Source: Erythrobacter sp. (lineage in GTDB: Bacteria > Pseudomonadota > Alphaproteobacteria > Sphingomonadales > Sphingomonadaceae). From it: a stretch of DNA of 64,000 bases. The stretch covers positions 53,072 through 117,071 of the forward strand of contig NZ_JBDXIY010000006.1 in the NCBI RefSeq assembly GCF_039988855.1, read 5' to 3'. Positions within the stretch are counted from its first letter, which is position 1; each line of letters begins with the position of its first letter. Positions 16,544-34,378 of this stretch are shown here, piece by piece. The notes under the pieces are model-generated. The model saw nothing but the letters and a program-made list of their open reading frames with translations. It ran no database searches and was not told the origin of the DNA. Both the position numbers and the translations under genes were made by a program.

Positions 16544-17056
16544 GTGCGCCGGCGCGATTTTATCCATATCGCGCCCGTTGCGTTCGCGGGAACCGGTGCC
16601 GCAGCAGCCGTCTGGCCGCTTATCGACAGCATGAACCCATCGGCCGACGTGGTTGCACAAGCTACGATCGAAGTCGATTTGCAACCGATTGAGCCAGGTC
16701 AACGTATCACTGTGAGCTGGCGCGAGCAGCCGGTATTCATCGTGCGGCGCACAGCTGAAGAGATCGCGCGAGCCAGAGCCGACGATGCCTCTTCAGGGCT
16801 GATCGATCCAGAGACGGACGCTGCGCGCGTGCAGCGACCAGAGTGGCTTGTGGTGGTGGGCGTCTGCACGCATCTTGGCTGCATTCCGTTGGGACAGGGA
16901 GTGGGTGAAAATCGCGGAAGATATGGGGGATGGTTTTGTCCCTGCCACGGGTCAATATACGACAACTCCGGACGCGTGCGGAAAGGGCCGGCACCGAAGA
17001 ACTTGGTCGTTCCGCAATACGTGATCAGCGACGATCTAAAGCTCTCGATCGGCTGA
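16544..17056 (+). CDS. petA: Rieske [2Fe-2S] subunit of ubiquinol-cytochrome c reductase (PetA-like). No petB/petC follows.
   Basis: Tat-like RRRDFI N-terminus and Rieske boxes CTHLGC and CPCHGS. GTG start with GGAAGG upstream. No cytochrome b ORF lies downstream. Confidence 0.8.
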
Positions 17057-17312
17057 TGAACTTGGGGGTGAGCCGGGCCGCCTCGAATGCGAGCAAGAAA
17101 TGCACCGACGACATCGGGGAACTTCGGAACTATGCAAAGTGCCCCGCATGCCAGGCAATGCACTTACACCTTTAGAGAATGCCCACCGTCCGTAGCCCCT
17201 TTTTCTCCAGTCTGCCTGCGCTGGTGCCGAGACGAGCGCGGACCAGGCTGAAAACCCTGAGCATCAATCCCCTTCGGTGAAACCATAGCAGCCAGCTCAC
17301 CCTTCTTAAAAA

Positions 17313-17981
17313 CTAGCGCACCGGCTCGCCCATTGGGGGGGAGGGTGAGACGGCGGTGTCTCTACGCAGAAAGAACATCAGGACGATCACGCTCATCGCC
17401 GCGGCAAAGAAGCACCAGACCGATATGAACCAAGTGAGATAGAACGCGCCTGCCGCAAGAAAGGAGACGATTGCTCCGACCCCAAACCAGTTGACCCAGC
17501 GATGGCTGGATAGCAGCGGGCTGACACAGGTGCCCAAGACATACAGTGTCATAACGATGCCAACGTAGAAGTGGGGGGATTCGTAGTCGATATGACCGTC
17601 GCCGGCTGTCGCGACGATTGGCAAGCGGATAAGGAAATAGAGCAAGTAGAGCCCAACCAGGGTTCCGCCAATCGCCGTCGCCATGAGGGCCTTTCGGCGC
17701 CAGGCTACCCTCTCGAGCATATAAACCGCCACCGGGACATAGATCGGCCACAGAACATGCGAAAAGATCGAATAGAGATAGGTCAGAACTGTCTTCAGCA
17801 CCGGCGCCTTGTCAGGAAATGTCAGCCAAAGTGCGCCCTCGATCAATTGCTGGACGCCAAACAGAATCGGAATCAGCGCGTAGGGTCTCTCGCCGCTGTT
17901 GCGCGCCATTCGCATTGTGAAGGCACCGGTTGCCAACAGCACGGTGCCGGCGGCGAAACTCGCTGTGGCGGAAAAACACAT
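17313..17981 (-). CDS. Polytopic membrane protein of unknown function
   Basis: 222 aa with about 7 hydrophobic helices. I recognise no catalytic motif. Confidence 0.55.
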   Translation of the reverse strand: MCFSATASFAAGTVLLATGAFTMRMARNSGERPYALIPILFGVQQLIEGALWLTFPDKAPVLKTVLTYLYSIFSHVLWPIYVPVAVYMLERVAWRRKALMATAIGGTLVGLYLLYFLIRLPIVATAGDGHIDYESPHFYVGIVMTLYVLGTCVSPLLSSHRWVNWFGVGAIVSFLAAGAFYLTWFISVWCFFAAAMSVIVLMFFLRRDTAVSPSPPMGEPVR

Positions 17982-18156
17982 ACAATCTAACCTCGCTGAT
18001 TGGACGCCCGAATATTTCTTCGTGCACCCATATTACACACGGGCCAAGTACCAAGCTTGCCGTGCGCTGTAAGTATGATTTCAGCTCGACCATGGTCTCG
18101 CTCGCAAGTACGGACGTTTGTGCACCGCGAGGTTTACAAGGCCCAGGGGAAAAACG

Positions 18157-18171
18157 GCACACCGTACGCAG
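18157..18171 (+). repeat. Left direct repeat (putative attL core)
   Basis: Exact 15-mer GCACACCGTACGCAG, followed by TAGCACTGC. The right copy is followed by CGGTAGCTGC. Confidence 0.65.
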
Positions 18172-18327
18172 TAGCACTGCTGTGTTTTGGGAAAAAGTGC
18201 AATAAAATCAGTGCGCGAAACGCTCAAAGTGCTCGGCAGAGAGGGCGCTGTTGAATGCCGTGCGGTCCCCGCAAATGACAGTATTTCCAAGGGTTCTGGG
18301 GGCAGTTTGCATGAGGGCGAATGCCAT

Positions 18328-19500
18328 ATGGTCCCCAAGCGTCGAATGTCTGCGCGCAGAGCGCTTCTCGATGGCAATTTTGCCCGCCGAGAACTGCCGC
18401 TGCGCGAACGCGAATACTGCATCTGGGACACTGAGCTTGCGGGCTTTGGATTGCGCGTAAGGCCGAGCGGCAACTACTTTTGGTTCGTTCGCTTACGCCA
18501 TCGCGGGAAGCATCGCCGCATCACCCTTGGCCGGACCGACGAGCTTGAGGCGGGGCTGGCAAGGGCGCAGGCCCGCCGCATTCTTGCGGAAGCCGCGCTT
18601 GATGGTTTGCCCAAACGCGCAGTGGTCAAGGCCACCCCGACGATGACCGATTTCGTTGAGGCCTATTGGGATGATCTTTCGCGCGTCTGGAAGCCCTCGA
18701 CCACCAAGCGGAACTGGGACGCTTGGCGGCTCACCATCAAGCCTACGTTTGGCGACACGCGCGTGGCGGACATCCTCCCACCAGACATCCACCGCTGGCG
18801 CGATGGATGCGCGGGAGAGAGCGAGGTGAAGTTCAACCGCGCCGTCCCCGTGCTCTCCGCGCTGTTCAAGTATGCCGAAGCGCTCAAGATGCGTCGGCCA
18901 GGTTCGAACCCCTGCCGAGGGATGCCACGATACAAGCGGCAAAGCGTCGAGCGCTATTTGACACCAGCCGAATATCGCCGGATCGGGGCAGCTTTGCGTG
19001 AGGCCGAGGCAGACCGACCGGCAGAGGTCGCAATCGCTCGCCTACTATTGTTTACCGGCGCACGCGTTGGTGAGATCAAGAATCTGCGCTGGGAGTGGGT
19101 GAAACCCCCACGACTTGTGCTGCCAGATAGCAAGACCGGCCCCAAGGTGATTTGGCTCAACACGCAGGCCCAGGATGTCCTTGCCGGGATCGAGCGGCGC
19201 GATGACAGCGCTCTCGTTTTTCCGAACCGGACCGGAAAATGTCCGCTGAACTTCGATACCTGGTGGTACAACTTCCGGCGGCGCTGCGCTTTGCCCGACG
19301 TTCGCATCCATGATCTGCGCCACAGCTTCGCCTCGACCGCGATCATGGACAACGTGCCGCTATCGACCATTGGCAAGCTGCTTGGCCACAAGCTGGTCGA
19401 GACGACCGCAAAATATGCTCACCTGTCCGATGACGTGATCGGCGAAGCCGCCGAGCGGGTTTCCGGCTCGCTGGCGCAAGCGATTGGCATCAGGCCATGA
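18328..19500 (+). CDS. int: Tyrosine-type site-specific integrase (P4-like, arm-binding N-terminus), copy 1
   Basis: FTGARVGEI (Arg), RIHDLRHSFAS (H-x-x-R) and LGHKLVETTAKYAHL (His..Tyr). I chose the start at ATG 18328. The track ORF begins at 18187. Confidence 0.88.
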   Translation: MVPKRRMSARRALLDGNFARRELPLREREYCIWDTELAGFGLRVRPSGNYFWFVRLRHRGKHRRITLGRTDELEAGLARAQARRILAEAALDGLPKRAVVKATPTMTDFVEAYWDDLSRVWKPSTTKRNWDAWRLTIKPTFGDTRVADILPPDIHRWRDGCAGESEVKFNRAVPVLSALFKYAEALKMRRPGSNPCRGMPRYKRQSVERYLTPAEYRRIGAALREAEADRPAEVAIARLLLFTGARVGEIKNLRWEWVKPPRLVLPDSKTGPKVIWLNTQAQDVLAGIERRDDSALVFPNRTGKCPLNFDTWWYNFRRRCALPDVRIHDLRHSFASTAIMDNVPLSTIGKLLGHKLVETTAKYAHLSDDVIGEAAERVSGSLAQAIGIRP

Positions 19501-20705
19501 CCGCCGCCAGTCTAAAGAAGATTGTCGAGGAGGCGCTTGCCGAGGTCGGGGCAACCGTAAACTTCAAGCTCGTTCCTAAAGGCAAGGCGCGGACCACGAC
19601 CTGGCTTGGTGTCGAGCACGGCTTTGGCATCCGGCATTATCCGAGCGGTCGAAACGTCTACATTGTGCAGACCCGCATGGCAGGTCGTATGCGCACGGTG
19701 ACAATCGGGCCTGCATCGGTCCTTACCCGCTACCAGGCGCAGATGGTTGCACGCCGCGTCATCGCATACGCGCAGGTCGGTCGCGATCCGGCGACCGAAC
19801 GCCAGCGCATCCGCTCCGCTCCTAGCTTCGCCGACTTCGTGACCGAGTATTGGGGTCGCTGGGCACCACGCTGGAAAGCATCGACCCTGGATACGCACAC
19901 CGGCTACCGACGCCGCTATATTGATGACGCCTTCGCTGGCGTCTACATTGACGAACTGAACGAGGGTTACGTCACCAGCTGGTTTGCGGACCTCAACAAT
20001 CGGACCGGGCCGGGAGCATCGAACCGGACTTTCGAAATCCTCAAGCACATGCTGAACAAGGCAGAGGAATGGGGCTACCGGCTCGAAAATACCAATCCAT
20101 GCCGTTCTGTTCGACCCAATCGCAAGCGCCAGTGCGAGCGCTTCCTTTCGAACGAAGAACTAGCCCGTCTGGGTGCCGAGCTGGCGAAGCTGCGATCATC
20201 GGACGACCGCACTAAGCAGTGTGTGGGCGCGGCTATCACGCTCCTGCTGCTGACCGGCTGTCGGAAGAGCGAAATCCTCACGCTCGAATGGAGCGATATC
20301 AAGGGCAATCGCCTGCACCTGCGCGACAGCAAGACCGGCCCACGAACGGTCTGGCTCGGATCGGCAGCCCGCGAAGTGATCGCCGGGCTGCCACGCTTCG
20401 AGAGGGTTCCATACCCGTTCTGGAATTACAGCTACCGCAAGCCACTTCGCTGTGTGAACGGATTCTGGCGCAGGCTCAGAGACGAAGCAGGATTACCCGG
20501 CGTTCGCATCCACGACCTGCGCCACACCTTCGCGAGTCACGCGGCGATGAACAAAGAGACATTGCCGATGATCGGACGTCTCCTCGGGCACGCCAATGTT
20601 CAGACCACGGCCCGGTATGCGCACTTGGACGACAGGCATTTGCTCGAAGCGGCACAGCAGATCGGGGATGCGGTGGGCGCCCTTATGGACACGCACAGGT
20701 GTTAG
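19497..20705 (+). CDS. int: Tyrosine-type site-specific integrase, copy 2
   Basis: LTGCRKSEI, RIHDLRHTFAS and LGHANVQTTARYAHL. ATGA overlap with integrase 1. Confidence 0.88.
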   Translation: MTAASLKKIVEEALAEVGATVNFKLVPKGKARTTTWLGVEHGFGIRHYPSGRNVYIVQTRMAGRMRTVTIGPASVLTRYQAQMVARRVIAYAQVGRDPATERQRIRSAPSFADFVTEYWGRWAPRWKASTLDTHTGYRRRYIDDAFAGVYIDELNEGYVTSWFADLNNRTGPGASNRTFEILKHMLNKAEEWGYRLENTNPCRSVRPNRKRQCERFLSNEELARLGAELAKLRSSDDRTKQCVGAAITLLLLTGCRKSEILTLEWSDIKGNRLHLRDSKTGPRTVWLGSAAREVIAGLPRFERVPYPFWNYSYRKPLRCVNGFWRRLRDEAGLPGVRIHDLRHTFASHAAMNKETLPMIGRLLGHANVQTTARYAHLDDRHLLEAAQQIGDAVGALMDTHRC

Positions 20706-20825
20706 CGCGCTAGAATATGTGGATAGCGCAGCAAAGTGCAGCACTATGCTGTATTCCGCTCCACCTTGCCAAGCTATCACGAAGACGGTACTGGGCTGGA
20801 ACGTAAAGAGAACAAAGGGGCTACG

Positions 20826-21017
20826 ATGGCTGACAAGATTCAAAGAATTTCGGTCAATCTGACTCCCAAGGAGGATGCTGAGCTTCGTCAATATGCTGAC
20901 CGACTCCAAGTCTCTTGCTCTTGGGTGGCTCGGCAAGCGATCGTTCAATATCTCGAAGAACACGCTGGCCCACAAAGTGAGCTTCCGTTGGCCCGAACGA
21001 CGGGAGGCGCGAAATGA
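20826..21017 (+). CDS. Ribbon-helix-helix (CopG/Arc/MetJ-like) DNA-binding protein
   Basis: MADKIQRISVNLTPKEDAELRQYADRLQVSCSWVARQAIVQYLEEH has the RHH beta-alpha-alpha pattern. AAGGGG RBS. ATGA overlap with the methyltransferase start. Confidence 0.7.
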   Translation: MADKIQRISVNLTPKEDAELRQYADRLQVSCSWVARQAIVQYLEEHAGPQSELPLARTTGGAK

Positions 21018-22153
21018 CCTCTGAACTCACGGCGATCGACTTGTTTTGTGGTGCGGGGGGCCTTTCCGAAGGACTCCGCCAAGCTGGTTTCCATGTGCTT
21101 GCTGGCAACGATTTCGATGAAGCAGCCGGGGCGACTTATGCTCGAACGCACAAGGAAGCACGCTTCCTCAAAGGACCGATTCAGAACCTAACCGTGGAAG
21201 ACTTCTTGCGCGCGGCTCGATTGAAGCCCGGTCAGTTGAGCGTGCTCGCCGGAGGCCCACCGTGTCAGGCTTACAGTGTCTACAACCATCAACGAGGAAT
21301 GCACGACGAGAGGAGCTTCCTGTTCAAGGAATACCTGCGCCTTGTTGATGGGTTGGCCCCCGAATGGGTAATCATGGAAAACGTCATGGGGCTGCTCTCG
21401 ACCGGACAGGGTGCAGCAGTGCGAGCAATCACCGAGGGCTTCAAGTCACTTGGCTATGACATTGCATTCAAAGTTCTCAAAGCCGAGGAATATGGTGTGC
21501 CGCAGGAGAGACGCCGCATCGTCTTCATCGGCAATCGCATGGGAAAGCCTATCAACTTCCCGTCTGTGACGCACGGCCCTGAGTTGGAACCGCTAACAAC
21601 CGTTTTCGATGCGATCTCCGATCTGCCAAGATTGAAGAACGGTGAGGCATGGCTCAATTCTCATTATGCCTCTGAACCAAGGTCAAGCTACCAAACTGAA
21701 ATGCGGCGTGGGACGCCTGGCGTTCTCAATCATGCCGCCCCGCGCTTGGCGAAGGTCAATGAGCAGCGGATGCGTCATATTCCGCCGGGAGGGAGCTGGC
21801 GAGACATTCCAATAGAGTTGCTACCAGCAGGCATGAAGAAGGCACGGCGCTGCGATCACACCAAGCGATACGGACGGCTGGAATGGCATGGGTTGTCTTC
21901 GACAATCCTCACAAAGTGTGACATCCACTGGGGAGCATATATCCACCCAGACGATGATCGTTCTTTGACCGTGCGCGAGGCCGCCCGATTTCAGTCGTTC
22001 CCTGACTGGTTCGAGTTCGAAGGAAGTAGAACTGAGCAGTTCGTCCAAGTTGGGAATGCAGTGCCCCCACTTCTTGGGCGCGCGTTGGGCGAAGAAATTA
22101 AGAAAAGTATCTTGGGGCAGGCTGCCAAGCGTCGGCTTCGGGTCGCGGCTTAG
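21014..22153 (+). CDS. dcm: DNA (cytosine-5)-methyltransferase
   Basis: All C5-MTase motifs are seen: I DLFCGAGG, IV GGPPCQAYS, VI VIMENVMGL, VIII VPQERRRIVFIG, IX LTVREAARFQSFPDWFEF, X GNAVPPLL. Confidence 0.92.
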   Translation: MTSELTAIDLFCGAGGLSEGLRQAGFHVLAGNDFDEAAGATYARTHKEARFLKGPIQNLTVEDFLRAARLKPGQLSVLAGGPPCQAYSVYNHQRGMHDERSFLFKEYLRLVDGLAPEWVIMENVMGLLSTGQGAAVRAITEGFKSLGYDIAFKVLKAEEYGVPQERRRIVFIGNRMGKPINFPSVTHGPELEPLTTVFDAISDLPRLKNGEAWLNSHYASEPRSSYQTEMRRGTPGVLNHAAPRLAKVNEQRMRHIPPGGSWRDIPIELLPAGMKKARRCDHTKRYGRLEWHGLSSTILTKCDIHWGAYIHPDDDRSLTVREAARFQSFPDWFEFEGSRTEQFVQVGNAVPPLLGRALGEEIKKSILGQAAKRRLRVAA

Positions 22154-22240
22154 CCACCCGCCTCAGTTCGATCTCATAAGATTGCCAAAAGGAGCCAGGG
22201 GCCTAAGGTCTCTGGCTTCTGACTTTTGCAGTAAGATCCA

Positions 22241-23953
22241 ATGATTATTTCAAAGCTTAAAATTGATAATTTTCGCGGCATCACGGCGCTCGAAATCGAT
22301 TTCGATCAGACGACGGTCGTTTTTGGTTCGAATAACACCGGCAAGTCGACAGTTCTGGCAGCTATACAAATGGTCCTAGGCAGGGCCGTGGGGCGCCGGT
22401 CAGCTGCTTTCTCGGAATATGATTTTCATTTGGACCAAGATGGCCAACCGACAGACGCGGCGCCGATTAAGATCGAGCTGACTTTCAAGGAAACTGAACC
22501 TGATGATTGGTCTGACGCGATGGTTCAGCAACTTGGACCAGTGGTGGGTATCGGAGGCGACGGTCTCCAAATTGTTACATTGCGCCTTAGTGGCCGGTAC
22601 GACGAGGCAATCGGTTCGTTCGTCTCAGCATTTGATTTCCTAAACCCGAACGGCGATCCCCTGCCAGCTAATGCCTCCGCCCTGCGGCGCATTCAGCAGA
22701 TTGTCCCTGCTTTTTATCTTGCGGCGCTCAGAGATGCGGCTCGCGAGTTTCGATCAAACGGGGCTTTTTGGGGACCCTTCGTCAAATCGCTAAAGATTGA
22801 TCCCGATATAAGGGAAGAGATTGAAGCTGAAATTGCACAACTCAATCAGAGGGTTCTCGATGCACATACTGGCTTTGATGCCGTAAAGGCACGGCTTGGG
22901 CAATCTGCTCAGTTGGTGCCTCTTGGCGGAGCTGACGATCCTGTCAGCATCGATGCGTTACCCAGCCGAGTATTTGACATACTCGCGAGAACTCAAGTTT
23001 TGCTCTCAGGGGTATCAGGTGCGCGCCTTCCCCTCGCGCAGCACGGTGAGGGAACTCAGAGCTTGGCTGTAATTTGTCTTTTCGATGCATTTCTCGATGC
23101 TCGCCTGGTTGGTGAGTATGGCGAGGACGCTGTCCCCATCTTGACCCTAGAGGAGCCGGAAGCGCATCTGCACCCATCGGCGGTGCGTGCGGTCGGTCAG
23201 CTGATCTCCCGGTTGGGAGGGCAAAAAATCATCACTACCCATTCCGGAGACTTGCTTGCTTCCGTTCCATTGAAAAGCTTGCGGCGTCTGCGACGGGTCG
23301 GAAATGAGATCGACGTCTTCAAGATTGAGGACGGCATGATCGATGAGCCCACATTGAGTCGCTTGGACCATCAGATTCGACGTCTCCGTGGCTCCATACT
23401 TTTTGCACGGGTGTGGCTGTTGGTGGAGGGTGAAACCGATGAGGTCATTATCCAGGAGGCAGCACGTGTTGCAGGTATTGATCTCTTCGCCGCCGGCGTA
23501 GGTTGCTTCAAGTTTACCGAGCTCGGTATTGAACCGTATATTCGTTTGGCTGACGCCCTTGGAATTCACTGGATTTGCGTCTCAGACGGAGATCCAGCGG
23601 GTCAGGGCTACGCAAACACCGCAGTCGGGCTGCTTGGTGGCAAGCCTGCGCAGGATCACATCAGGACACTGCCAGCCTGGGATATGGAAACCTATCTTTG
23701 CATGAATGGATTTGGCGACATCTTTGAGGCCAGCGCTTCTCCTCAGAAGGTTGCGGCCAATCCAAATCCACATGCGCAGGGTACGCAAGAGTATTGGCAG
23801 CACCTGGTAAACAAACATCAACCCACTAAGGGGAAGCCGGTCCGCGCTACTCAGGTCGTGGATCGCCTCGATCAACAAGGCGCAGCGTCGATACCTCCAT
23901 TCCTGGTGGACCTAGCCAATTTCGCCGTGGCCAAAGGGAGGGAAGGTCTATGA
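22241..23953 (+). CDS. gajA: OLD-family ATP-dependent endonuclease (ABC-type ATPase plus Toprim), GajA-like
   Basis: Walker A GSNNTGKST, Walker B/H-loop LTLEEPEAHLHP and Toprim LLVEGETDEV...ICVSDGDPAG. 570 aa. The region has lower GC. Confidence 0.8.
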   Translation: MIISKLKIDNFRGITALEIDFDQTTVVFGSNNTGKSTVLAAIQMVLGRAVGRRSAAFSEYDFHLDQDGQPTDAAPIKIELTFKETEPDDWSDAMVQQLGPVVGIGGDGLQIVTLRLSGRYDEAIGSFVSAFDFLNPNGDPLPANASALRRIQQIVPAFYLAALRDAAREFRSNGAFWGPFVKSLKIDPDIREEIEAEIAQLNQRVLDAHTGFDAVKARLGQSAQLVPLGGADDPVSIDALPSRVFDILARTQVLLSGVSGARLPLAQHGEGTQSLAVICLFDAFLDARLVGEYGEDAVPILTLEEPEAHLHPSAVRAVGQLISRLGGQKIITTHSGDLLASVPLKSLRRLRRVGNEIDVFKIEDGMIDEPTLSRLDHQIRRLRGSILFARVWLLVEGETDEVIIQEAARVAGIDLFAAGVGCFKFTELGIEPYIRLADALGIHWICVSDGDPAGQGYANTAVGLLGGKPAQDHIRTLPAWDMETYLCMNGFGDIFEASASPQKVAANPNPHAQGTQEYWQHLVNKHQPTKGKPVRATQVVDRLDQQGAASIPPFLVDLANFAVAKGREGL

Positions 23954-25872
23954 GCGAATTTCTCAGTTCATTGAATGAGCGGCAAGCCGCAGCAGTTTCT
24001 TGGCAGGACGGACCACTCTTGGTTCTCGCCGGTCCCGGCTCAGGTAAGACGACAGTTCTAACGAGACGCATCGGGCGCATGATCCAACAATCGCCGGATG
24101 ATCATTATCGCGTTCTAGGATTGACCTTCACGAATAAAGCAGCAGCCGAAATGCGCGCGCGTATCGAAAAGCTGGCACCTGGCTCTGGCAATCGCGTCCT
24201 GTTGACCACTTTCCATTCGTTCGCAGGCGATCTTTTGCGTCAACACGGCCACCTGCTCGGCCTGAAACCGGACTTTACGATCCTGACTCAAGACGGCGAG
24301 CGAATAGGATTGTTAGACGAAGCCATCGCAGATGCCGGTCGATCTTTTGAGGTCTCGGAATTCAGCGGTGAACGACTACTGCCTTTGATCAACAGGTTAC
24401 TTGAGAACGATGTTGGTGACGAGCGAGTTGAGAAGATCGTCGCGACGCTGCCGGAGGAACGACGAGCGTCGGTGAGCGCTGTTTATCGAGCTTACAAGGA
24501 CAGGCTGATTGCGGCCAACAGCCTCGACTTCCCCTCGATGATTTCAGAAGCAGTGCGAGTGCTAAGGACGCATGCAGCCGTAGCGAAGCAAATCCGCCGC
24601 ATCTATCGCTACGTTTGCGTCGACGAATTCCAAGACACCAATTTCGCGCAATACAGCTTGCTCATTTGTTTGGTGGCTTCTGACTCGAGAAACCTCTTCG
24701 TGGTCGCGGATGACGACCAGATAATCTACCAATGGAATGGGGCTAGCCCAGCGCGCCTTGAAGGTTTGAAGCGCGATTTCGAGATGACCGTGCTTCAGCT
24801 CCCCACGAATTATCGATGCCCACCAGCGGTCATCGATATCGCCAACAAACTTATCGCCAACAACTCCACGCGAACGGCAAACAAGGATCAGCTTCTTGCC
24901 GAAAAGCCCGCGACTGAAGATCAGGGACTCAATCTTTATCATTTTCCAGACTTTGAAAGTGAGGTCGCGTGGGTTGCTCAAGACATTTCGGCGAAATCGG
25001 CTTCAGAGAGAGAACGATGCGTAGTCCTTGCGCGGACACGAAAGACGCTCGAGCGAGCGGTCGAGCACCTAGGCAACAATGGTGTGACCGCTTATTTGGC
25101 AAACCGAAAAGATGAATTTGTAAGCGCCCCGCTGCGCTGGCTCCACGCTGCGCTGCGACTGGCCAATAGTTCAAATGATCGAGAGCAAACTCGTAGACTG
25201 ACCAGAGCCTTTTTTGCACTGGAAGGACTGCAGATTGACCCGGCTGGTGTGACTTCTGCAGCCGAGGCATTCGAGGGTAGCGCTCTTCGTTCGTTTCTTA
25301 ACTTGGCCCTTGAGCGCAACGAGCTTAGTGATCACACGCGGAAGTATCTCGTGTCCGCATTGCCACAATTGGTCGAGCGGCTCGATTTTCGATCATTCTG
25401 CGCATCCACCTTCGAATGGTTCGCAGGTTTGCCCGATCAACCATTCCTCGCTTCCTCAAACGACTTCTCCGAGTTCGAAGATGAGAAGAAAGTTTGGGAG
25501 GCCCTGGTCGCTGATATTGAGGCCCAGTTTGGAAAGGAAAGTGTGACGCTTCATATGCTCCTTCAGGAGCTTGACCTCCGATCAAAAACGCCGCCTCAGC
25601 CCAAGGAAGCAGTGCCATGTTTTACGATTCATGCCTCGAAAGGAATGGAGTTCGGGCATGTCTATTTGATCGCCATGGTCGAGGACCAGCTTCCGAGCTG
25701 GGCAGCAGTCAAGAAAGGGGCCGAAAGCCCCGAAATGCAGGAAGAGCGGCGAAACTGTTTCGTGGCGATCACTAGGACCGAAGATAGCCTAACTCTGACC
25801 TACTCCGACAAGGTATTTGGTTGGCAGAAGGCCCCCTCGCGTTTCCTCCGGGAGATGGGATTCCAAGTCTGA
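23950..25872 (+). CDS. gajB: UvrD/PcrA-like superfamily 1 helicase, GajB-like
   Basis: LNERQAAAV, AGPGSGKTTVL, VCVDEFQDTN, NYRCP, TIHASKGMEFGHVYLI and AITRTEDSLTL. ATGA overlap with the gajA-like gene. Confidence 0.8.
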   Translation: MSEFLSSLNERQAAAVSWQDGPLLVLAGPGSGKTTVLTRRIGRMIQQSPDDHYRVLGLTFTNKAAAEMRARIEKLAPGSGNRVLLTTFHSFAGDLLRQHGHLLGLKPDFTILTQDGERIGLLDEAIADAGRSFEVSEFSGERLLPLINRLLENDVGDERVEKIVATLPEERRASVSAVYRAYKDRLIAANSLDFPSMISEAVRVLRTHAAVAKQIRRIYRYVCVDEFQDTNFAQYSLLICLVASDSRNLFVVADDDQIIYQWNGASPARLEGLKRDFEMTVLQLPTNYRCPPAVIDIANKLIANNSTRTANKDQLLAEKPATEDQGLNLYHFPDFESEVAWVAQDISAKSASERERCVVLARTRKTLERAVEHLGNNGVTAYLANRKDEFVSAPLRWLHAALRLANSSNDREQTRRLTRAFFALEGLQIDPAGVTSAAEAFEGSALRSFLNLALERNELSDHTRKYLVSALPQLVERLDFRSFCASTFEWFAGLPDQPFLASSNDFSEFEDEKKVWEALVADIEAQFGKESVTLHMLLQELDLRSKTPPQPKEAVPCFTIHASKGMEFGHVYLIAMVEDQLPSWAAVKKGAESPEMQEERRNCFVAITRTEDSLTLTYSDKVFGWQKAPSRFLREMGFQV

Positions 25873-25915
25873 AGTCGATCAATCGGACGCCGTTCGCACG
25901 TCAAGTTTGTGCGCT

Positions 25916-26815
25916 TTAACTCCCCAAAGCGAGCTTGATTGCAGACGCATAGACATTCTGGTCGGGGAGATTCATTGGCGACGTAAATGCCGTAGCGACT
26001 TGATCCACGGTTGTCGTGAATTGGGCGTTGAACTCCAATGGTCGTTGCATCGTTGAGGGATCTACATCGCCAAGTTGGTAGGACCTGAAAGAAAGGGTAC
26101 CTGGACCTACTGGATACTCGTGCAGGTTATTGCCCAATCTGTCTCTGATCTTTTGATAGACCTGCCCCGGGCAGACGAAAAACAGGCCTTTGGAGCACCG
26201 CGCCTCTCGACGCAGGACATGTCCCTTGTAGATCAGCTGAGGAAGAATGCGCTTGTTCACATTCTCCCAATTCATGCCAGACTTACTCCAGCCATCGAAG
26301 GTCTCTCCAGCAAAATAGGCGTCTGATTGATCCCTATAATTGCCCGTCGTGTCTATCGTTTGAACCTCCACGGCGGTAAATTCTTGGAGCTCGCCATCGG
26401 CATCGATGCGGGCCAATATCCAGTCAACGTAATATGCGCCACTCTTCGCCCCATCGGCTCGTTTAGGGCGAGGAAGGGGGAGTTCGCCTCCCCATCCTTT
26501 TCCAAAGGCAATGACCTCAGAACCGGTCAGCGACTCCGATCCTTTTCTTGCCCTTCCTTCAGCGGCGGTAATGAGTTCGATCTGCTGGCCGAAGACTTCG
26601 GCGGCTACTTCACGAAGCACGCGATAGTTCTCCGCATACAGACGATTTGGACAGCAGATTATTGGTTCACTTGTCGTCTGCCGAACGGAGCAGGCGCCGT
26701 GGTTTGGCTTAATGCAGGGGCTAACCGTGTAGGGGCATTGCTTTCCGGAAATGTATCCTGACGCAAGTGGCGAGAGTGGTGGAAATCCAAAAAACTCAAC
26801 AATCTTCAGTGCCAT
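25916..26815 (-). CDS. Type II restriction endonuclease, NotI family
   Basis: An N-terminal EFFGFP plus a Cys cluster (CPYTVSPC..GACSV..IICCPNR), a catalytic-core-like YYVDWILARID..FTAVEVQTIDTTGNY and NWENVNKRILPQLIYKG. These parallel NotI (AEFFGH.., ..LVCPNR, ..VLEIQTMDFHGSY, ..NVFKRTFYQM) as I recall it. Confidence 0.65.
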   Translation of the reverse strand: MALKIVEFFGFPPLSPLASGYISGKQCPYTVSPCIKPNHGACSVRQTTSEPIICCPNRLYAENYRVLREVAAEVFGQQIELITAAEGRARKGSESLTGSEVIAFGKGWGGELPLPRPKRADGAKSGAYYVDWILARIDADGELQEFTAVEVQTIDTTGNYRDQSDAYFAGETFDGWSKSGMNWENVNKRILPQLIYKGHVLRREARCSKGLFFVCPGQVYQKIRDRLGNNLHEYPVGPGTLSFRSYQLGDVDPSTMQRPLEFNAQFTTTVDQVATAFTSPMNLPDQNVYASAIKLALGS

Positions 26816-27142
26816 CGCGCGGGTCCCCTCTGCAGACCCTTATCGCAAGATTTCGCGGCGCGAAAGGCGCGGGAATTTCGTTCGTCGCGTGTGGGTGAGG
26901 TCGCGGAGAAATTGCTCAACCACGGACCGAGTTGATTGCATGCTCGTGAATGCTATTTGGTCCCCATTCCGGAACAATGAGCAAAATCCAGGGCCAATCC
27001 GGAACAAAAGCTCTCTATAAGATGCGGCGCTCGGCTGTCGCGCGCCGCCGCCTATCCCACTTGAAATTCAACAATTTTCGGCGGGATTCTTTCAGGCAAA
27101 TTTCCTGGTCACTAACGCGCACTTGAGAATGGGCTTGACCCA

Positions 27143-27157
27143 GCACACCGTACGCAG
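27143..27157 (+). repeat. Right direct repeat (putative attR core)
   Basis: Exact second copy of GCACACCGTACGCAG. Confidence 0.65.
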
Positions 27158-27321
27158 CGGTAGCTGCATAGGATGGCAAAAAAGCGCGAAGTAACAGAAG
27201 CATCGCTAGTCCGAAGGGGCGAGCAATCAGGTGGTAGCCAAGGCGCAGGAGTATCCCGTCGCTGGACCTGCGCATCCCACCATTGTGGGCACCGGGATGG
27301 AAGGCTATCGCTTAACCTACT

Positions 27322-28230
27322 ATGCCAGCGCGTCTTTCCGCAATCTTTGTGATGCTTCTTTGGGCGTCCTGCTATCCGCTCATAACGGTCGGTCTCGATA
27401 GCGCGCCCCATCTCACCTTCGCCGTGCTGCGCGCGGTTCTTGCAGGCACCACGTTACTGGCGGTCGGTATCATTCTAAGAAAGCCCTTTCCGCGCGATGG
27501 AAGCATCTGGGGATGGATCATTCTTGCCGGTCTCGGCATGACGGGGCTGGGTTACTACGGGATGTTCCATGCTGCGGAGTTCGTTTCGCCCGGCCTTGCA
27601 ACCGTCATCGCCAACAGCCAACCCCTCATCGCGGCAGGCCTTGCCTTTCTTTTTCTCCGTGAGCGCCTGTCTTCCAAGGGCTGGATCGGGTTATGGCTCG
27701 GCTTTGCGGGAATCCTCATCATTGCTGGCCCGCGAATTCTCCAAGGTCCGCTGGCGCTCTCAACCGGCTTTGCATATGTGCTGCTTGCGGCCTTCGGCGT
27801 TGCCGTGGGCAACATCGCCATCAAGAAGCTCTCGGGGCGCGCCGACGCAGCGATCGCCATGGGCCTTCAACTCCTCATCGGCGCTGTCCCGCTCGCGTTT
27901 CTGGCTTTGCTTACCGAAGATCAGGGCCAAATCGACTGGTCGCCGGTTTTCATCGCGAGCCTGCTTGGGTTGGCGATCCCAGGTACAGCCCTCGCATTCT
28001 GGCTGTGGCAATATACGCTCGGCAAAATCGAACTCTCGAAGGCTAATGTATTCAGCTTCCTGGTGCCCGTTTTCGGTTTAACGATCGGCGCTGCCTTCTT
28101 CGGTGAAAGGCTTACACCCCTGATCATCATGGGCACAGCAATTGCAACCGCGGGCGTATGGCTGACGACCATAAAGTCATCGAGTGACGTTCAGCCGAAA
28201 GCGAAAGGAGCGAGGGACGGGCGCGCATAA
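27322..28230 (+). CDS. EamA/DMT-family transporter
   Basis: 302 aa and 10 TM helices in two EamA-like halves. Confidence 0.8.
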   Translation: MPARLSAIFVMLLWASCYPLITVGLDSAPHLTFAVLRAVLAGTTLLAVGIILRKPFPRDGSIWGWIILAGLGMTGLGYYGMFHAAEFVSPGLATVIANSQPLIAAGLAFLFLRERLSSKGWIGLWLGFAGILIIAGPRILQGPLALSTGFAYVLLAAFGVAVGNIAIKKLSGRADAAIAMGLQLLIGAVPLAFLALLTEDQGQIDWSPVFIASLLGLAIPGTALAFWLWQYTLGKIELSKANVFSFLVPVFGLTIGAAFFGERLTPLIIMGTAIATAGVWLTTIKSSSDVQPKAKGARDGRA

Positions 28231-28310
28231 GGGATGCTCTTCGTGAAAAAATCAGGTGGCGATGGGCTGCAGCAAAGGGCGGGCGATGACTTCGTTGGCG
28301 GATGCTAAAG

Positions 28311-29639
28311 CTAAAACTCCTCAAGCGCGCTCGAAAGCCTGGGCAAACGCGTCGCCAGGGCCGCAGCTATGCAGTCATGAACAGGTTCGGCGAAGTCCAC
28401 CGGCATCGCTTCGCGCGCTACCGTCGGCGCATCACGTGCGCGGTCCATCAGTTCGTTGATGGCTGCACGCATGAGGCCTTTGCCAAGCCCCGCTGACTTG
28501 CCCGACTGGACAAAATGCCGACCGGTCACCTCGTTCAGCCGGTAGTGACGGTTGGTGCCTGCGGACATCGCGAGCCGGAACCTGTTCTGCGCAATCTGGT
28601 CGGAGTCGACGGCCGGTTGGGCCGAGAGCACATCGTAGAAGGGGGTCAGGCTGTAGCGTCCGCCGGGCTTCAGGAAGATACTGAAATTCTTGGCGTGCCC
28701 GTCCGTTGCACCAATGAGCCAGAAGAGGATCTGGCTCTTGAAAAAGGCGGCTGCGTCGGCTTGCGGATCGTCAGCACCGCGCAACAGGCCGAAGATATCC
28801 TTCATGTTCGGGCCGCCATCGCTCTGATATTTGTGCGTGGGCGGATAGCCGAGTGCTTGGCAGCAGTCCTCTTGCGGCAGACGCAGGATTTGCTTGGCGT
28901 TGCGCCAGTGCCTGTCGAACCGTTCGACGACGAGAACTCGGCGCTGGCCGACGGTCGCAATCTCTGTCGCTGCGACCGACAGGCCGAACGCCTTCATCAG
29001 CGTCATGCAATAGTGCTCGTTGTCGACGCTGTTCGACATGTCGATCATCCCGTCGGCGCTGGGTATCTGTCCAAGTTGCGGCTTCAGGATGTGAGTTGTC
29101 GGGGTCACACCGGCCGGTCGGTGCCATTTCCCATCGATTCGAAGCAGGGCCGTCTTCTCCTGCGCGCCGGCAACCGAGATCCTGAATTCCTGTTTCCGAT
29201 CGACGCCAAGTGGAGCCCGTGCGAGATCGGCGAGAAGGGCCTCGACTTCGGTGTCGCTGACCGGTTCGCTTTCGATGTCGGTACTCTGCGCCTGATCTGC
29301 GCCTTCGGGCAGGAACTGCATGGCACCGACGCAGTCGCGTCCGATGGCTTCGAGTAGGCTGTAGAAGTCGGTGCCCTGAGCGCCCATGCGCTCGGCTACG
29401 CGGCGGCGTACTGCATCCCTGTCCGGGAGAAGATTGTCGAACACGGCGATGACCGGAGCGCCACGATAGGCCGCCGGGGTCAGAGGCAGCGAGAGCGACG
29501 CTGCGAAGCGGTGCTCCCAGGCCAGCCACTCTTCGGAATACCGGAAACTGATTGCACCGCTCGCCGCCTTTTCGAGGCGGCCGACCTGCCTGCCGTTGAT
29601 AAGTACATCGAGGGGCGCATGGGTCTTTTTGCGCGCCAT
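28311..29639 (-). CDS. hipA: Type II toxin HipA-family serine/threonine kinase
   Basis: N-terminal LDVLINGRQVGRL, then ISVAGAQEKTALL and the catalytic TDGHAKNFSIFL. 442 aa. Confidence 0.9.
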   Translation of the reverse strand: MARKKTHAPLDVLINGRQVGRLEKAASGAISFRYSEEWLAWEHRFAASLSLPLTPAAYRGAPVIAVFDNLLPDRDAVRRRVAERMGAQGTDFYSLLEAIGRDCVGAMQFLPEGADQAQSTDIESEPVSDTEVEALLADLARAPLGVDRKQEFRISVAGAQEKTALLRIDGKWHRPAGVTPTTHILKPQLGQIPSADGMIDMSNSVDNEHYCMTLMKAFGLSVAATEIATVGQRRVLVVERFDRHWRNAKQILRLPQEDCCQALGYPPTHKYQSDGGPNMKDIFGLLRGADDPQADAAAFFKSQILFWLIGATDGHAKNFSIFLKPGGRYSLTPFYDVLSAQPAVDSDQIAQNRFRLAMSAGTNRHYRLNEVTGRHFVQSGKSAGLGKGLMRAAINELMDRARDAPTVAREAMPVDFAEPVHDCIAAALATRLPRLSSALEEF

Positions 29640-29888
29640 TTAGAAGACGTCCTCAATCGAGGCGCCGTCCTGCTGACGCGGCACGATCTGAAGATCGAGG
29701 CCGAGGACTGCGATGACACTGATGAGCGTGTCCAGCTTTGTTCCTTCGCTTCCGTTCTCTATGGCCGAGATGGTTTTCTGCTGCGTCCCGGCGAGTCTGG
29801 CGAGCTCGGTTTGGGTCAGGCCCTTGCCGAGGCGATGGGTCTGGATCACGGCTCCGAGTTGACTGGGAAGCCTGACGATCTGGCGCAT
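29640..29888 (-). CDS. hipB: HipB-like XRE-family antitoxin
   Basis: MRQIVRLPSQLGAVIQTHRLGKGLTQTELARLAGTQQKTISAIENG is an HTH_XRE pattern. The stop abuts the hipA start. I chose the internal ATG at 29888 over the track start at 29987. Confidence 0.85.
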   Translation of the reverse strand: MRQIVRLPSQLGAVIQTHRLGKGLTQTELARLAGTQQKTISAIENGSEGTKLDTLISVIAVLGLDLQIVPRQQDGASIEDVF

Positions 29889-29908
29889 AGCATACCTCCA
29901 CACTCCAC

Positions 29909-29981
29909 TATACCGCCAAGGGTATAAAATGGCAATATACCTTTTGGGGAATAAATCACCCTTATTCCCTGGGGGGGTATG
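29909..29981. promoter_or_regulatory. Tandem dyads upstream of hipB (putative HipB operators)
   Basis: TATACC-N6-GGTATA at 29909-29926, TATACC-N6-GGAATA at 29936-29953, and a degenerate TATTCC-N7-GGTATG at 29963-29981. E. coli hipBA operators are TATCC-N8-GGATA. Confidence 0.55.
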
Positions 29982-30084
29982 CTGCATCCGATCGCCACGA
30001 GAGATCCATCAATGGTGCCGGCCGGGCGAACCTCGCGTAGGAGAGAGGCGTCTTGAACAGGATGATCCGACCCGTGTCGGCGAG

Positions 30085-30819
30085 TCAGGAACCGGACTTT
30101 CGTTTCCCCCTAAGCCATCCGATCCTTGGTAACCTGTTGGCCAGCAGAACAAATCCCGAAAGGGCAATGAACGTACCTGCGATACCAAACAGGAGAAGCC
30201 ACCAGCTGTTGATGCGGTCGCGCTGGGTCCAGTCCATGATGTGAACGCCCCAGATGAAATCGAAGAGCCGCCAGGTATCGCTTCGCGCTGACAGGACCGT
30301 TCCGCTCGAGGCGTCGATATAGACGCGCGTCGCGTCGCGTTCGTCATAGGTGATCTGCCAGGCCGGGAAGGGGCCCCTGAATTCGGTCCCGACGTCGCGT
30401 TCGACAAGCCGCGCGCCGGCGACCGAAGTCTCCGGGCCTATCCAGGCGCGGCGAGCGATCGCGCGCGCTGTCGCGGCCGAAATGGGGGACAACAAGCGTC
30501 CGCTATGCGGATCATGCAGCGTGACACCGCCATCCGCTCGCCGCACTTCGGTAACCACCTTGCCGTCGAGAGCACGTGTGGCAACCGAAACCACATCATC
30601 TTGCCTTTCCAGCCATTCGGGTAACTCGGCCCGGGCAGGCAATATTTGCGCAGCGCGGGACACGATATGCTCCGAGCGTACCTCCTCCAGATCGAGAAAG
30701 GACATCAAGGCACCGGTGCCCATCCACATCAGAACTTGCGCCCCGATCAGGAGCGCCAACCACTTGTGGAGCTTGCTGCTAAAGACATGCAAGCGCAGTT
30801 TGAGGGACCGCGAAGCCAA
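30085..30819 (-). CDS. PepSY-associated TM helix / PepSY-domain membrane protein
   Basis: N-terminal SSKLHKWLALLIGAQVLMWMGTGALMSF, a central periplasmic domain and a C-terminal TM helix. Confidence 0.6.
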   Translation of the reverse strand: MASRSLKLRLHVFSSKLHKWLALLIGAQVLMWMGTGALMSFLDLEEVRSEHIVSRAAQILPARAELPEWLERQDDVVSVATRALDGKVVTEVRRADGGVTLHDPHSGRLLSPISAATARAIARRAWIGPETSVAGARLVERDVGTEFRGPFPAWQITYDERDATRVYIDASSGTVLSARSDTWRLFDFIWGVHIMDWTQRDRINSWWLLLFGIAGTFIALSGFVLLANRLPRIGWLRGKRKSGS

Positions 30820-30842
30820 CTGTCTCGCCGCTCCGTAGCGGG

Positions 30843-31364
30843 TCAGGGCCGCCGCGGCGCGTGCGAGGAGGAGTGGTACTGCACGATCTTCCAGCCCGAT
30901 TCATCGTGCGAAAGGACCGAGGTCGCGACCCCGTCACGCTCGATCACGCGCCCGTCCTCGAGCTCGATCCGGTAGCCGTAGGTTTCGTAGCCATAGGCCA
31001 TATGGCCCTTACGGGTCATCGTCAGCGTCGGGTCGGTGAAAGTAAAGCTCGTGATCGCATCGAGCTCGGGTCCGAGATGGTGCTCCATGTAATTGGCGAA
31101 ACTCCCCTCGGACTTGCCGTTCTCGAAGATCGCGGAGGCTTCCGCGAACAGGGCCGACATGCCTGCGGCATCGCGCGACACCAATGCGGCGCGATAAGCC
31201 TCGAGAATATCTTCAGCGCCCGACACATCTTCGCTGGCCGAACCTGTCTTGTCGGAATGATGTGTCCCATGTCCGGAATGGTCCATGTCCTGCGCCGCAG
31301 CCGGCACTGGCGCCGCAGCAATAGCTAGCGCAACTACCGGCACTCGCAATAAAGTGTTCATCAT
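30843..31364 (-). CDS. Secreted NTF2/SnoaL-like (DUF4440-like) protein with a His-rich N-terminus
   Basis: Signal peptide ..AAPVPAAAQD, then MDHSGHGTHHSD. The body, ILEAYRAALVSRDAAGMSALFAE...GWKIVQYHSS, is NTF2-fold-like. Confidence 0.5.
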   Translation of the reverse strand: MMNTLLRVPVVALAIAAAPVPAAAQDMDHSGHGTHHSDKTGSASEDVSGAEDILEAYRAALVSRDAAGMSALFAEASAIFENGKSEGSFANYMEHHLGPELDAITSFTFTDPTLTMTRKGHMAYGYETYGYRIELEDGRVIERDGVATSVLSHDESGWKIVQYHSSSHAPRRP

Positions 31365-31385
31365 GTCAGTTTCTTCTCCCTTGAC

Positions 31386-32501
31386 CTAAAACCAGAACCG
31401 CACGCCGACGACGTAGTTCGTTACGCTGGGGTCCTCGCCGGCGGCCCTTGCGAAATCGCGGCTGTTGCCGATCTTCCATTCCTGGTCGATGCCGATATAG
31501 GGCGCGAATTCGCGCGCGAATTCGTAGCGCAGGCGAATGCCGACCTCGATCGTATCGATCCCCGAGCCGATCCCGAGTTCGGGAATGTCCTGTGCTGACA
31601 GCGCGATTTCGGCGCGCGGCTGCACGATCAGACGCTGTGTGATGAACTGATCGATTTCACCTTCAATTCGTGCGGTAAGATCGCCCTTGTTCGACAGAAA
31701 TGCTGCTGCATCGACCTCGAACTCATAGGGAACGAGCCCTTGGATGCCCACAACCGCATGGGTGCGTTCAGGCCCAGTAAAATCCTGCCGCACGCCCGCC
31801 TGAAAATCGAAGAAAGGCGCAATGGCACGGCTCCAAAGCGCCTGCACTTCGGCGCTTTCAATGGTCTCGCCGAAGCTGCCTTCGCCTTCGGATTTGAACC
31901 AGAACTTGTTGTAGTCACCGCCATAATAACCCTGGACGTCCCACAAATAGCCGTCGTCGCCCTCGCGCAGGCGGTATTCGAGCCGGTCGCCCTGAAACCA
32001 GAATACCGGCGTTCCGCTCACTTCCTTGGTGACGGCCGCCCGAGACGCAGCCATTTCCTCTGCGCCGACAAAGGCATCGGCGGCAAAGGCGGGGCCCTGT
32101 AGCGCTTCAGGCGGGGGAGGGCCTTCCGGGATCGCCATATGGTCGGCGGATGCTCCATGGCCCATCGCGGAATGATCCATTTGCGACATGCCGCCCTCAT
32201 CCTCCTTGCCGGTCATGGGCATCGCGCCATGCTGGGCTGCCCCATGATCCATGTTCGAATGATCCATAACCTCCGGGTTCTCAACCTCCTCCTGAGGATG
32301 CTGCGTCCGGGAGTGATCCATCTGAGGTTGATCCGGCGCATGGTGATCGTGCGCCTCGCTCGCAGCCTCGTCGTCTTGAGCAGCTTGCCCGGCCTGGCTC
32401 TGCGGTTCGGCAGCCTGCGTGCCGTGATCATGCTGCTGTGCCCAGACTGCGCTCGGAAGTGCCAGCAGGGGGAGGGCGATCATCATGGTCGCGCGCTTCA
32501 T
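31386..32501 (-). CDS. copB: Copper resistance protein B (outer membrane, CopB/PcoB)
   Basis: Signal peptide and a Met/His-rich N-terminal region with repeated MDHS motifs. The C-terminal beta-barrel ends in ..NYVVGVRFWF. Confidence 0.85.
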   Translation of the reverse strand: MKRATMMIALPLLALPSAVWAQQHDHGTQAAEPQSQAGQAAQDDEAASEAHDHHAPDQPQMDHSRTQHPQEEVENPEVMDHSNMDHGAAQHGAMPMTGKEDEGGMSQMDHSAMGHGASADHMAIPEGPPPPEALQGPAFAADAFVGAEEMAASRAAVTKEVSGTPVFWFQGDRLEYRLREGDDGYLWDVQGYYGGDYNKFWFKSEGEGSFGETIESAEVQALWSRAIAPFFDFQAGVRQDFTGPERTHAVVGIQGLVPYEFEVDAAAFLSNKGDLTARIEGEIDQFITQRLIVQPRAEIALSAQDIPELGIGSGIDTIEVGIRLRYEFAREFAPYIGIDQEWKIGNSRDFARAAGEDPSVTNYVVGVRFWF

Positions 32502-34315: not shown

Positions 34316-34348
34316 CGAAAGCTCCTGTATGAACGATACACCCTCAAC

Positions 34349-34378
34349 TACGAAGGGCCCGGTTCTACCCCTCAAAAA
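34349..34378 (-). promoter_or_regulatory. ECF-type promoter upstream of copA
   Basis: The minus strand reads TTTTTGAGGG-N16-CGTA. The architecture is identical to the sites at 35702-35731 and 35734-35763. It overlaps the 3' end of the sigma gene. Confidence 0.65.

Follow-up and report, generated by a model that had tools for sequence, protein, structure and literature searches.

How does a complete anti-phage system come to lie between the two genes of another, and do the two then work as one? The question is raised by a stretch of 64,000 nucleotides from Erythrobacter sp. (contig NZ_JBDXIY010000006.1 of assembly GCF_039988855.1, positions 53,072 to 117,071; hereafter the window, whose own coordinates are used throughout), in which a Gabija-type gene pair, gajA and gajB, stands between the methyltransferase gene (M) and the endonuclease gene (R) of a type II restriction-modification (R-M) system. 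The reading that we favour, and to which we give a probability of about three in four, is that a single insertion event brought a standard Gabija cassette into a permissive junction of an equally standard R-M module, one with a ribbon-helix-helix (RHH) gene ahead of M, on a small island with tandem integrase genes that has since spread among marine Erythrobacteraceae. The arrangement looks like the stacking of cargo and not like a new integrated system; Gabija, R-M and the embedding of one defence system in another are all already known. The argument depends on the following features of the block:

20826..21017 (+), RHH (CopG-type) regulator of the R-M module (Pfam RHH_1, E = 2.3e-5)
21014..22153 (+), M, C5 cytosine DNA methyltransferase (PF00145, E = 1.8e-66; PADLOC MTase_II, E = 5.9e-124)
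22154..25915 (+), inserted segment between the M and R stop codons, 3762 bp (comparison with the closest relatives)
22191..22219 (+), hairpin with a 13-bp stem and a 3-nt loop, terminator- or attenuator-like (RNA fold)
22241..23953 (+), GajA, OLD-family ABC ATPase plus Toprim nuclease (PADLOC GajA PDLC00094, E = 4.7e-196)
23950..25872 (+), GajB, UvrD/PcrA/Rep-like superfamily 1 (SF1) helicase (PADLOC GajB PDLC00114, E = 2.4e-267)
25916..26815 (-), R, NotI-family type II endonuclease of 299 amino acids (aa) (Pfam NotI, E = 1.9e-7; PADLOC REase_II, E = 7.7e-42)

Composition of the nested block

The order RHH-M-gajA-gajB-R, first read from the letters alone, was borne out by the list of open reading frames (ORFs), in which all of the genes occupy the positions given for them. 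The 87-bp gap claimed between M and gajA is found between the M stop codon at 22153 and the gajA ATG at 22241, and the distance between M and R, put at 3.7 kb, was measured at 3762 bp. This segment is made up of the 87-bp leader, gajA, gajB and a 43-bp trailer that separates the stop codon of gajB from that of the convergent R. M and R had also been taken for the sole methyltransferase and the sole restriction enzyme, and a PADLOC scan of the remaining ORFs of the window that reach 110 aa, 49 in number, added neither. RHH and M share an ATGA overlap at 21014-21017 and gajA and gajB share another at 23950. The only small regulator at hand is the RHH protein coupled to M: the roughly 500 bp upstream of R contain no called gene, and R is not preceded at this locus by a C protein of the helix-turn-helix (HTH; Xre) type.

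Catalytic motifs are kept in all four enzymes. Those of M are legible in its translation (DLFCGAGG, GPPCQ, ENV, QERRR and GNAVPP). The assignment of the middle pair to Gabija withstood a PADLOC check in which the GajA and GajB models both gave very strong matches. The GajA match takes in the full length of the protein (residues 1-566 of 570), its Pfam domains are DUF2813, AAA_15, AAA_21 and OLD-like_TOPRIM, and the alignment of its subfamily shows no variation at the Walker A lysine K35, the EEPEAHLHP segment, EGE396-398 or D449/D451. GajB contains the Pfam domains UvrD-helicase and UvrD_C. Searches of the PDB matched GajA to the GajA of Bacillus cereus (E = 4e-11) and GajB to its B. cereus namesake (E = 2e-18), the best matches of GajB being UvrD (E = 2.5e-59), PcrA and Rep. 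Class 2 OLD systems join the gene of an OLD nuclease to that of a UvrD/PcrA/Rep-like helicase; judged by domains and synteny, the cassette falls within the definition of these systems and of Gabija.

R is assigned to the NotI family by the Pfam NotI model, which scores it at 31 bits against a cut-off of 22. A phmmer search with R alone against the PDB gave no match, the NotI structure being reached by the family profile only. This profile, built from 27 members of the R family, matches the NotI structure 3BVQ (E = 8.6e-10, residues 5-236) in an alignment that covers the N-terminal Cys motifs and the D...E-x-Q core. Residues C27, C34, C42, C54, C55, D131, E150 and Q152 of R are invariant in the family, and we take those of the D...E-x-Q core to be the catalytic residues of NotI. 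A "truncated" R of 234 aa that appears in many contigs was set aside as a start choice by the gene caller, the DNA being identical except for a single-nucleotide polymorphism (SNP) at 26166.

M and R, a probable cognate pair whose genes normally adjoin

An alignment of the R family scanned against one genome per species (GTDB representatives) yielded 80 loci. An M homologue adjoins R in 76 of them, the median gap being 43 bp and the widest 1064 bp; 22 of these pairs are convergent and 51 are co-directional, with M preceding R. Over the 76 loci the identities of R and of M to the proteins of the window are correlated (Pearson r = 0.85). The adjacency in these relatives and the correlation together argue that M and R are a co-evolving cognate pair despite the 3762 bp between them in the window, a distance far beyond the norm of the family that leaves methyltransferase and endonuclease genes no longer adjacent. 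Neither gajA nor gajB lies between M and R at any of the 80 loci. The gajAB genes of the window, by contrast, are flanked on both sides by the genes of one other system.

The closest relatives show what the module looks like when it is not interrupted. At locus L088 the RHH and M proteins are each 80% identical to those of the window and R is 74% identical, and the two integrases of the carrier island described below, Int1 and Int2, have counterparts that are 60% and 59% identical; at L090, a conjugative-element locus, the figures for RHH, M and R are 65%, 78% and 75%. The stop codons of M and R abut or overlap at both loci, and, compared with them, the segment 22154-25915 is therefore a single insertion of 3762 bp. 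A deltaproteobacterial metagenome-assembled genome (L004) has the order Int-Int-RHH-M/R without gajAB.

Homologues of R that are 43-50% identical are found on 28 plasmids in PLSDB, and in most of the PLSDB matches listed a C5-methyltransferase gene is annotated overlapping the match; a megablast search of the PLSDB plasmids with the block itself gave no match. Counts of hexamer palindromes, made for hints of the recognition sequence, put CGGCCG second by depletion in the window (observed/expected 0.71); the island has no CGGCCG, and it has no CCGCGG or GGGCCC either. The closest R homologue in the genome collection (75%) comes from Sphingomonas hominis (L001), where the 228 bp between R and the end of the contig (L001:10892-11119) contain no M and carry repeated CTGCTC(A/G)C motifs; something else therefore follows R there.

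gajAB as a self-contained cassette

Homologues of GajA number 1647 at E <= 1e-50. The set that we compared comprises 84 gajAB loci, 80 of them from a metagenome scan, with GajA proteins that are 39-74% identical to that of the window. A NotI-family R is found near gajAB at none of the 84, and a C5-methyltransferase of any kind is found in the flanks of three, with none nested. GajB directly follows GajA in all of the related loci that have enough downstream sequence, and what surrounds the pair varies. Among the nearest homologues, one gajA (72%) stands behind DUF6118 on a MobA/TraD/TraG conjugative element, a backbone of the same kind as that which carries the R-M pair in L090; another 72% homologue is divergent from a cluster of two C5-methyltransferases and McrBC; and the ATG of a 64% homologue (L099) overlaps the stop codon of a type I hsdR gene. 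Judged by these loci, gajAB is a self-contained, independent mobile cassette that occurs in many unrelated contexts. Of the possibilities that the sequence-only reading had left side by side, two independent systems packed together is thus the one that the comparisons uphold, since the cognate M and R adjoin in 76 of 80 genomes and gajAB stands by itself elsewhere.

Two of these loci deserve a further remark. L099 (4600-11629) has the order hsdM-IS-hsdS-Ymh-hsdR-gajA-gajB, with gajA starting 4 nt before the end of hsdR, and is a further juxtaposition of R-M and Gabija in the same GajA clade, appended and not nested. L090 and L096 are related MobA/TraD/TraG elements in which the slot beside DUF6118 holds either RHH-M/R (with vsr) or gajAB; therefore both modules appear to frequent the same cargo hotspot.

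A probable single insertion, its spread and its decay

The island of the window is identical to that of Qipengyuania citrea assembly GCA_039966475.1 (Erythrobacteraceae), and from one Q. citrea assembly to another there is a difference of 0-1 SNP in 9 kb. In Croceicoccus naphthovorans, which belongs to a different genus, and in the genome labelled Croceicoccus sp. Ery15 the island is about 99.9% identical, and Erythrobacter sp. SAORIC-644 matches at 99.66% over 13.3 kb. The exact GajA protein occurs in 111 and the exact GajB protein in 137 indexed blocks of a public collection, with the same gene order wherever it was read. It had been asked whether M-gajAB-R recurs as a block in other genomes; beyond these copies it does not, at any of the 80 R-M loci or the 84 gajAB loci, and the same cargo in the same type of host is not found again in other lineages. 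The identity of the nested copies, at least 99.9% in all of them, together with this failure to recur, therefore indicates that the nested block stems from one insertion event followed by spread in Erythrobacteraceae and is not a recurrent design. Normal adjacency of M and R elsewhere, coupled with restriction of the nest to one genome, had been named in advance as the mark of a chance insertion: the adjacency is found and the restriction to one genome is not, but the copies trace to a single insertion.

Two natural alleles record the loss of Gabija from the nest. In C. naphthovorans CP011770 (L188 and L192) an IS3-family insertion sequence (IS) lies in gajA at window positions 23006-23009, and both gajA halves have 4 bp in common, as a target duplication would leave them. 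A later rearrangement has put the halves of the island about 160 kb apart in opposite orientation, one reading DUF6629-Int-Int-RHH-M-gajA' and the other 'gajA-gajB-R-IS-EamA; M, gajB and R are intact and gajA is dead. In Ery15 (CP087588, L195) an IS21 element takes the place of window positions 23605-26034, so that gajA lacks its last 349 nt, R lacks its last 119 nt and gajB is gone altogether, with RHH and M intact; the truncated gajA allele is also present in a metagenome contig (L196). Gabija has been lost in two of the four named lineages, and nesting therefore did not prevent its loss. The M of Ery15 is effectively an orphan methyltransferase, and its Int2 is also broken by insertion sequences, with a 9-bp overlap at 20160-20168.

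The RHH regulator and the transcription of gajAB

A hidden Markov model of the RHH protein detected a homologue no more than 500 bp upstream of M in 23 of the 76 Gabija-free loci, namely at 8 of the 22 convergent pairs and at 15 others, and in both gene orders; the signature ...VSLAWVVReA..Y...WPLF is conserved in the family. The company that it keeps with M in relatives devoid of Gabija indicates that RHH belongs to the R-M system. The proposal that it acts as a common controller of R-M and Gabija fares badly in this light, and a comparison of the regions upstream of RHH, gajA and R found no k-mer of 8 or longer in common. The N-terminal region of M.SsoII-type C5-methyltransferases is known as a regulator, and the 507-aa M of L035 has an N-terminal extension that is HTH-like by eye. 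The comparison points to RHH as an autoregulator on the M side, unlike the C proteins of classical HTH type that are encoded upstream of R. What it shares with control by C proteins and by M.SsoII is that a small DNA-binding protein within the R-M module probably sets the expression of M and R, and, as in the M.SsoII systems, the regulator sits on the M side; it differs in that the fold is RHH and not HTH and in that the regulator is a separate protein coupled to M and not to R. The literature searched yielded no account of RHH regulators in type II R-M systems, and the RHH protein is a recurrent M-side component of a widespread NotI-family R-M lineage.

The hairpin at 22191-22219 lies in the spacer between M and gajA. 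An A-run precedes it and TGACTTTTGC follows, its end is 21 nt short of the gajA ATG, and it is unique in the window; the 111-nt fold has a free energy of -40.8 kcal/mol (z = -3.0). No sigma-70-like promoter was detected in the 87-bp spacer. Several of the M/R spacers of 16 convergent relatives fold, and none of them contains a homologue of the hairpin; the spacer between gajB and R is unstructured. Transcription of gajAB probably depends either on attenuated read-through from RHH-M or on an unrecognised promoter.

Other genes at the M/R junction

The junction that received gajAB has other occupants in six relatives. A vsr gene lies between the convergent R and M at L041 (10913-11356) and L035 (2041-2508), and in the same 475-bp gap at L023 (Pfam Vsr, E = 1e-29 and 7e-20 for the two that were tested); at L090 vsr is on the other side of R. 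The locus from Loktanella has a gene for a 315-aa Mrr_cat protein between R and M (L011:10951-11898, +), and that from Ruegeria has a gene for a 182-aa protein with no Pfam or PADLOC match in the same place (L080:3017-3565, -). Each of the four inserted genes that were examined shares the strand of the adjoining M or R and lies 4-30 bp past its end. Inserts may survive at a 3'-3' junction because this is the only site in so compact a module where insertion cuts no gene from its promoter, and by the argument from embedding the L011 and L080 proteins are candidates for defence genes.

It could be supposed from this that the tail-to-tail junction is a general slot whose cargo is wired into the R-M system, with RHH-M-gajAB forming one transcript and Gabija acting as a coupled second layer. 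We think this improbable. Were it true, Gabija would be licensed by the ends that the restriction enzyme makes or by phage inhibitors of end-processing nucleases, and the nested L011 and L080 genes would be new defence genes. That the M/R junction repeatedly holds extra genes would extend searches of the "guilt-by-embedding" kind to type II systems.

Relation to known defence systems

The gajAB pair resembles the Gabija system of Bacillus cereus VD045 and the class 2 OLD pairs in being a two-gene operon with overlapping ORFs, in which GajA is an ABC ATPase plus Toprim protein with the Walker A, signature and Toprim acidic residues and GajB is an SF1 UvrD-like helicase. It differs from the B. 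cereus system in that the homology is distant, in that GajB is 640 aa long (494 aa in B. cereus) and is closer to UvrD/PcrA (E about 1e-59), and in that the pair lies between a type II M and R. Anti-phage activity and nucleotide-sensitive DNA nicking are predicted for this clade. The R-M pair, for its part, has the N-terminal Cys cluster, the D...E-x-Q core and the canonical C5-methyltransferase of other NotI-family systems, which, paired with a C5-methyltransferase, are often carried by plasmids, for example those of Xanthomonas, Pseudomonas and Klebsiella; what sets it apart is that M and R are 3.76 kb apart and that R has about 300 aa where NotI has 383.

A "guilt-by-embedding" survey reports defence genes lodged within Hma, BREX, DISARM and type I R-M systems, and embedded Gabija and PARIS have been discussed as backups that are triggered by anti-restriction proteins. 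Worked examples are PrrC in the type Ic system EcoprrI and DarTG2 between hsdS and hsdR of a type I system, with the small repressor RptR at the head. The suggestion that the arrangement in the window had not been described as a unit is borne out in part: embedding in other defence systems is known, but type II M/R pairs as hosts are absent from the literature searched. The window resembles these cases in that one system is enclosed whole by the genes of a second, runs in the direction of the host gene upstream of it and belongs to a block headed by a small regulator. The host here differs in being a convergent two-gene type II system, with the insert at a 3'-3' junction and not inside an operon; PrrC depends functionally on its host system, whereas Gabija here most likely works beside its own; and the architectures in the survey are recurrent, whereas this one would have a single evolutionary origin.

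The plain reading of the locus is that a complete system can drop into a permissive intergenic spot of another and that the composite can then travel between genera. It offers a documented case of the growth of a defence island together with natural decay alleles, and these alleles indicate that nesting in an R-M system does not protect the inner system; loss towards R that spares M fits the logic of addiction.

Weighing the explanations

In the scheme that we prefer, an integrative island of about 9.0 kb, driven by two tandem tyrosine recombinases, would carry the block as cargo. The original cargo would have been an RHH gene translationally coupled to that of a C5-methyltransferase, with a NotI-family R convergent to it, tail to tail; the 3.76-kb gajAB cassette would have entered this junction once, at the one point of the module where no gene would be cut off from its promoter, so that a neutral or beneficial insert would survive; and the composite island would then have moved among Erythrobacteraceae. 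The two systems most likely act in parallel, like those of any defence island: M would methylate host DNA and R would cut incoming unmethylated DNA, RHH would autoregulate the RHH-M operon, by analogy with the N-terminal region of M.SsoII, and GajAB would form a second layer that attacks invader DNA, as Gabija does elsewhere. Several points weigh against this scheme. No empty attachment (att) site is present among the loci retrieved, in a comparison that included no scan aimed at one; the gajA leader and gajB trailer show no similarity outside the coding frames to those of cassettes that are 64-72% identical; and no transposase or target duplication lies beside the cassette, for which neither a donor nor a mechanism of insertion was found. 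The independent functioning of R-M and Gabija is suggested by comparative genomics, and the position of gajAB, co-directional with RHH-M, 87 bp downstream of it and lacking a recognisable promoter, makes co-regulation conceivable. The argument from a permissive junction is a logical one, with six non-adjacent cases among 77 lineages.

That same position is the starting point for the view that RHH-M-gajA-gajB is one transcript under RHH control and that R-M and Gabija cooperate mechanistically as a two-layer unit. The spacer has only a hairpin and no sigma-70-like promoter, genes nested at the junction in relatives look operonic, sharing the strand of the adjoining M or R at a distance of 4-30 bp from its end, and the PrrC and DarTG2 systems, the latter under RptR, are precedents; in L099 the 64%-identical gajA overlaps the type I hsdR at its end. 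According to one published account DNA termini activate GajB, and according to another Gabija targets linear DNA ends unoccupied by RecBCD; given these models, cooperation between R-M and Gabija is plausible. The integrated unit is nonetheless unlikely in our estimation, for the hairpin is terminator-like, the upstream regions of RHH, gajA and R have no k-mer of 8 or longer in common, RHH is a trait of the R-M family where Gabija is absent, this clade of Gabija has been paired with this R-M family only once, and all of the mechanistic steps are matters of inference. It is a slim chance that Gabija is instead held in place by addiction, in the sense that deletions of gajAB would tend to take M with them and the surviving R would then kill the cell. 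R-M modules are known from a review to act as addiction systems, most of the sampled copies have full-length gajAB (the 111 and 137 indexed blocks), and the sole deletion allele seen, that of Ery15, ran towards R and spared M, which is the direction that addiction would allow. Yet Ery15 lost Gabija along with the R end, so that nesting could protect from one side at most; gajA of C. naphthovorans was killed by an IS3 element, and a rearrangement has moved M and R, both intact, about 160 kb apart; half of the four named lineages have lost Gabija although it was nested; and an arrangement with a strong advantage should have arisen more than once. The stabilisation of Gabija by R-M addiction, as the sequence-only reading had proposed it, is not supported by these two alleles, and nesting gives no demonstrable extra stability. 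Least credible of all is the idea that R is not cognate to M and that a gajAB-R unit landed beside an orphan RHH-M. Only the physical separation of M from R speaks for it; R and M co-diverge and adjoin across the 76 loci, the nearest relatives of R (74-75%) lie directly beside the nearest relatives of M (78-80%) and RHH (65-80%), and none of the gajAB relatives has such an R. The arrival of R together with gajAB was rejected on these grounds of co-divergence, adjacency and R-less gajAB relatives. The preferred scheme, a single insertion into a standard module, is left as the best account of the locus.

The carrier island and its surroundings

The limits of the island and the genes for its mobility are given by the following features, for the repeats of which no strand applies:

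18157..18171, 15-nt exact direct repeat GCACACCGTACGCAG, left copy, putative attL (repeat search)
18307..18337, 31-nt imperfect direct repeat (81% identical), left copy, just inside the end of the island (repeat search)
18346..19500 (+), tyrosine recombinase Int1 (Pfam Phage_integrase, Arm-DNA-bind_3, Phage_int_SAM_3)
19497..20705 (+), tyrosine recombinase Int2, whose start overlaps the end of Int1 by 4 nt (ORF list, Pfam)
26936..26966, 31-nt imperfect direct repeat, right copy, 120-150 bp upstream of R (repeat search)
27143..27157, 15-nt direct repeat GCACACCGTACGCAG, right copy, putative attR (repeat search; point of divergence of L190)

The copies of the 15-nt repeat at 18157 and 27143 are 8986 bp apart and bracket Int1, Int2, RHH, M, GajA, GajB and R, so that integrase genes stand at one end of a segment with direct repeats at both; about 0.06 exact repeats of this kind would be expected by chance in 11 kb. 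The repeat is present in all of the sister assemblies. SAORIC-644 (L190) matches the window up to the right copy and is divergent from 27151/27159 onward. Both integrases have Arm-DNA-bind_3 domains, and the 31-nt repeats may be their arm-type sites. The start of Int1 is uncertain, gene callers choosing either 18328 or 18346. At the right repeat of L190 there is a second tandem-integrase element (L190:13200-21923) that encodes an SMC-like protein of 1290 aa and T5orf172.

An Int2 that is at least 90% identical, with an adjacent integrase of 390-429 aa, is found elsewhere (L197-L200) ahead of different cargo, consisting of RND efflux, MarR and CBASS-like genes or of glycosyltransferases. The integrase pair, standing as it does ahead of varied cargo, therefore looks like a general cargo carrier. 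The G+C content drops from about 0.60 to 0.52-0.56 across 21-27 kb, and at third codon positions (GC3) it is 0.47-0.60 in the cargo, 0.72 in the integrases and 0.64-0.74 in the flanking genes that were measured; the cargo is, by its GC3, of foreign composition. The window contains no tRNA genes. The left flank is as poor in SNPs as the island, and SNP density did not delimit the latter.

Beyond the island, PADLOC hits among the 49 ORFs mentioned above were to the mad2 (6e-22), mad1 and HTH_VI models only; the output did not name the matching ORFs, and our guess is that they are the HipA/HipB-like pair at 28311-29987. At least 17.5 kb of the window (17030-34549) is shared between Q. citrea and C. 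naphthovorans at 98.7-99.95% identity, and besides the island this stretch takes in DUF6629, EamA, HipAB and a copper-resistance cluster with CopB and a multicopper oxidase; the island therefore appears to sit within a larger segment that moves horizontally. Most of the differences between the window and the sister assemblies lie at 28.9-34.5 kb.

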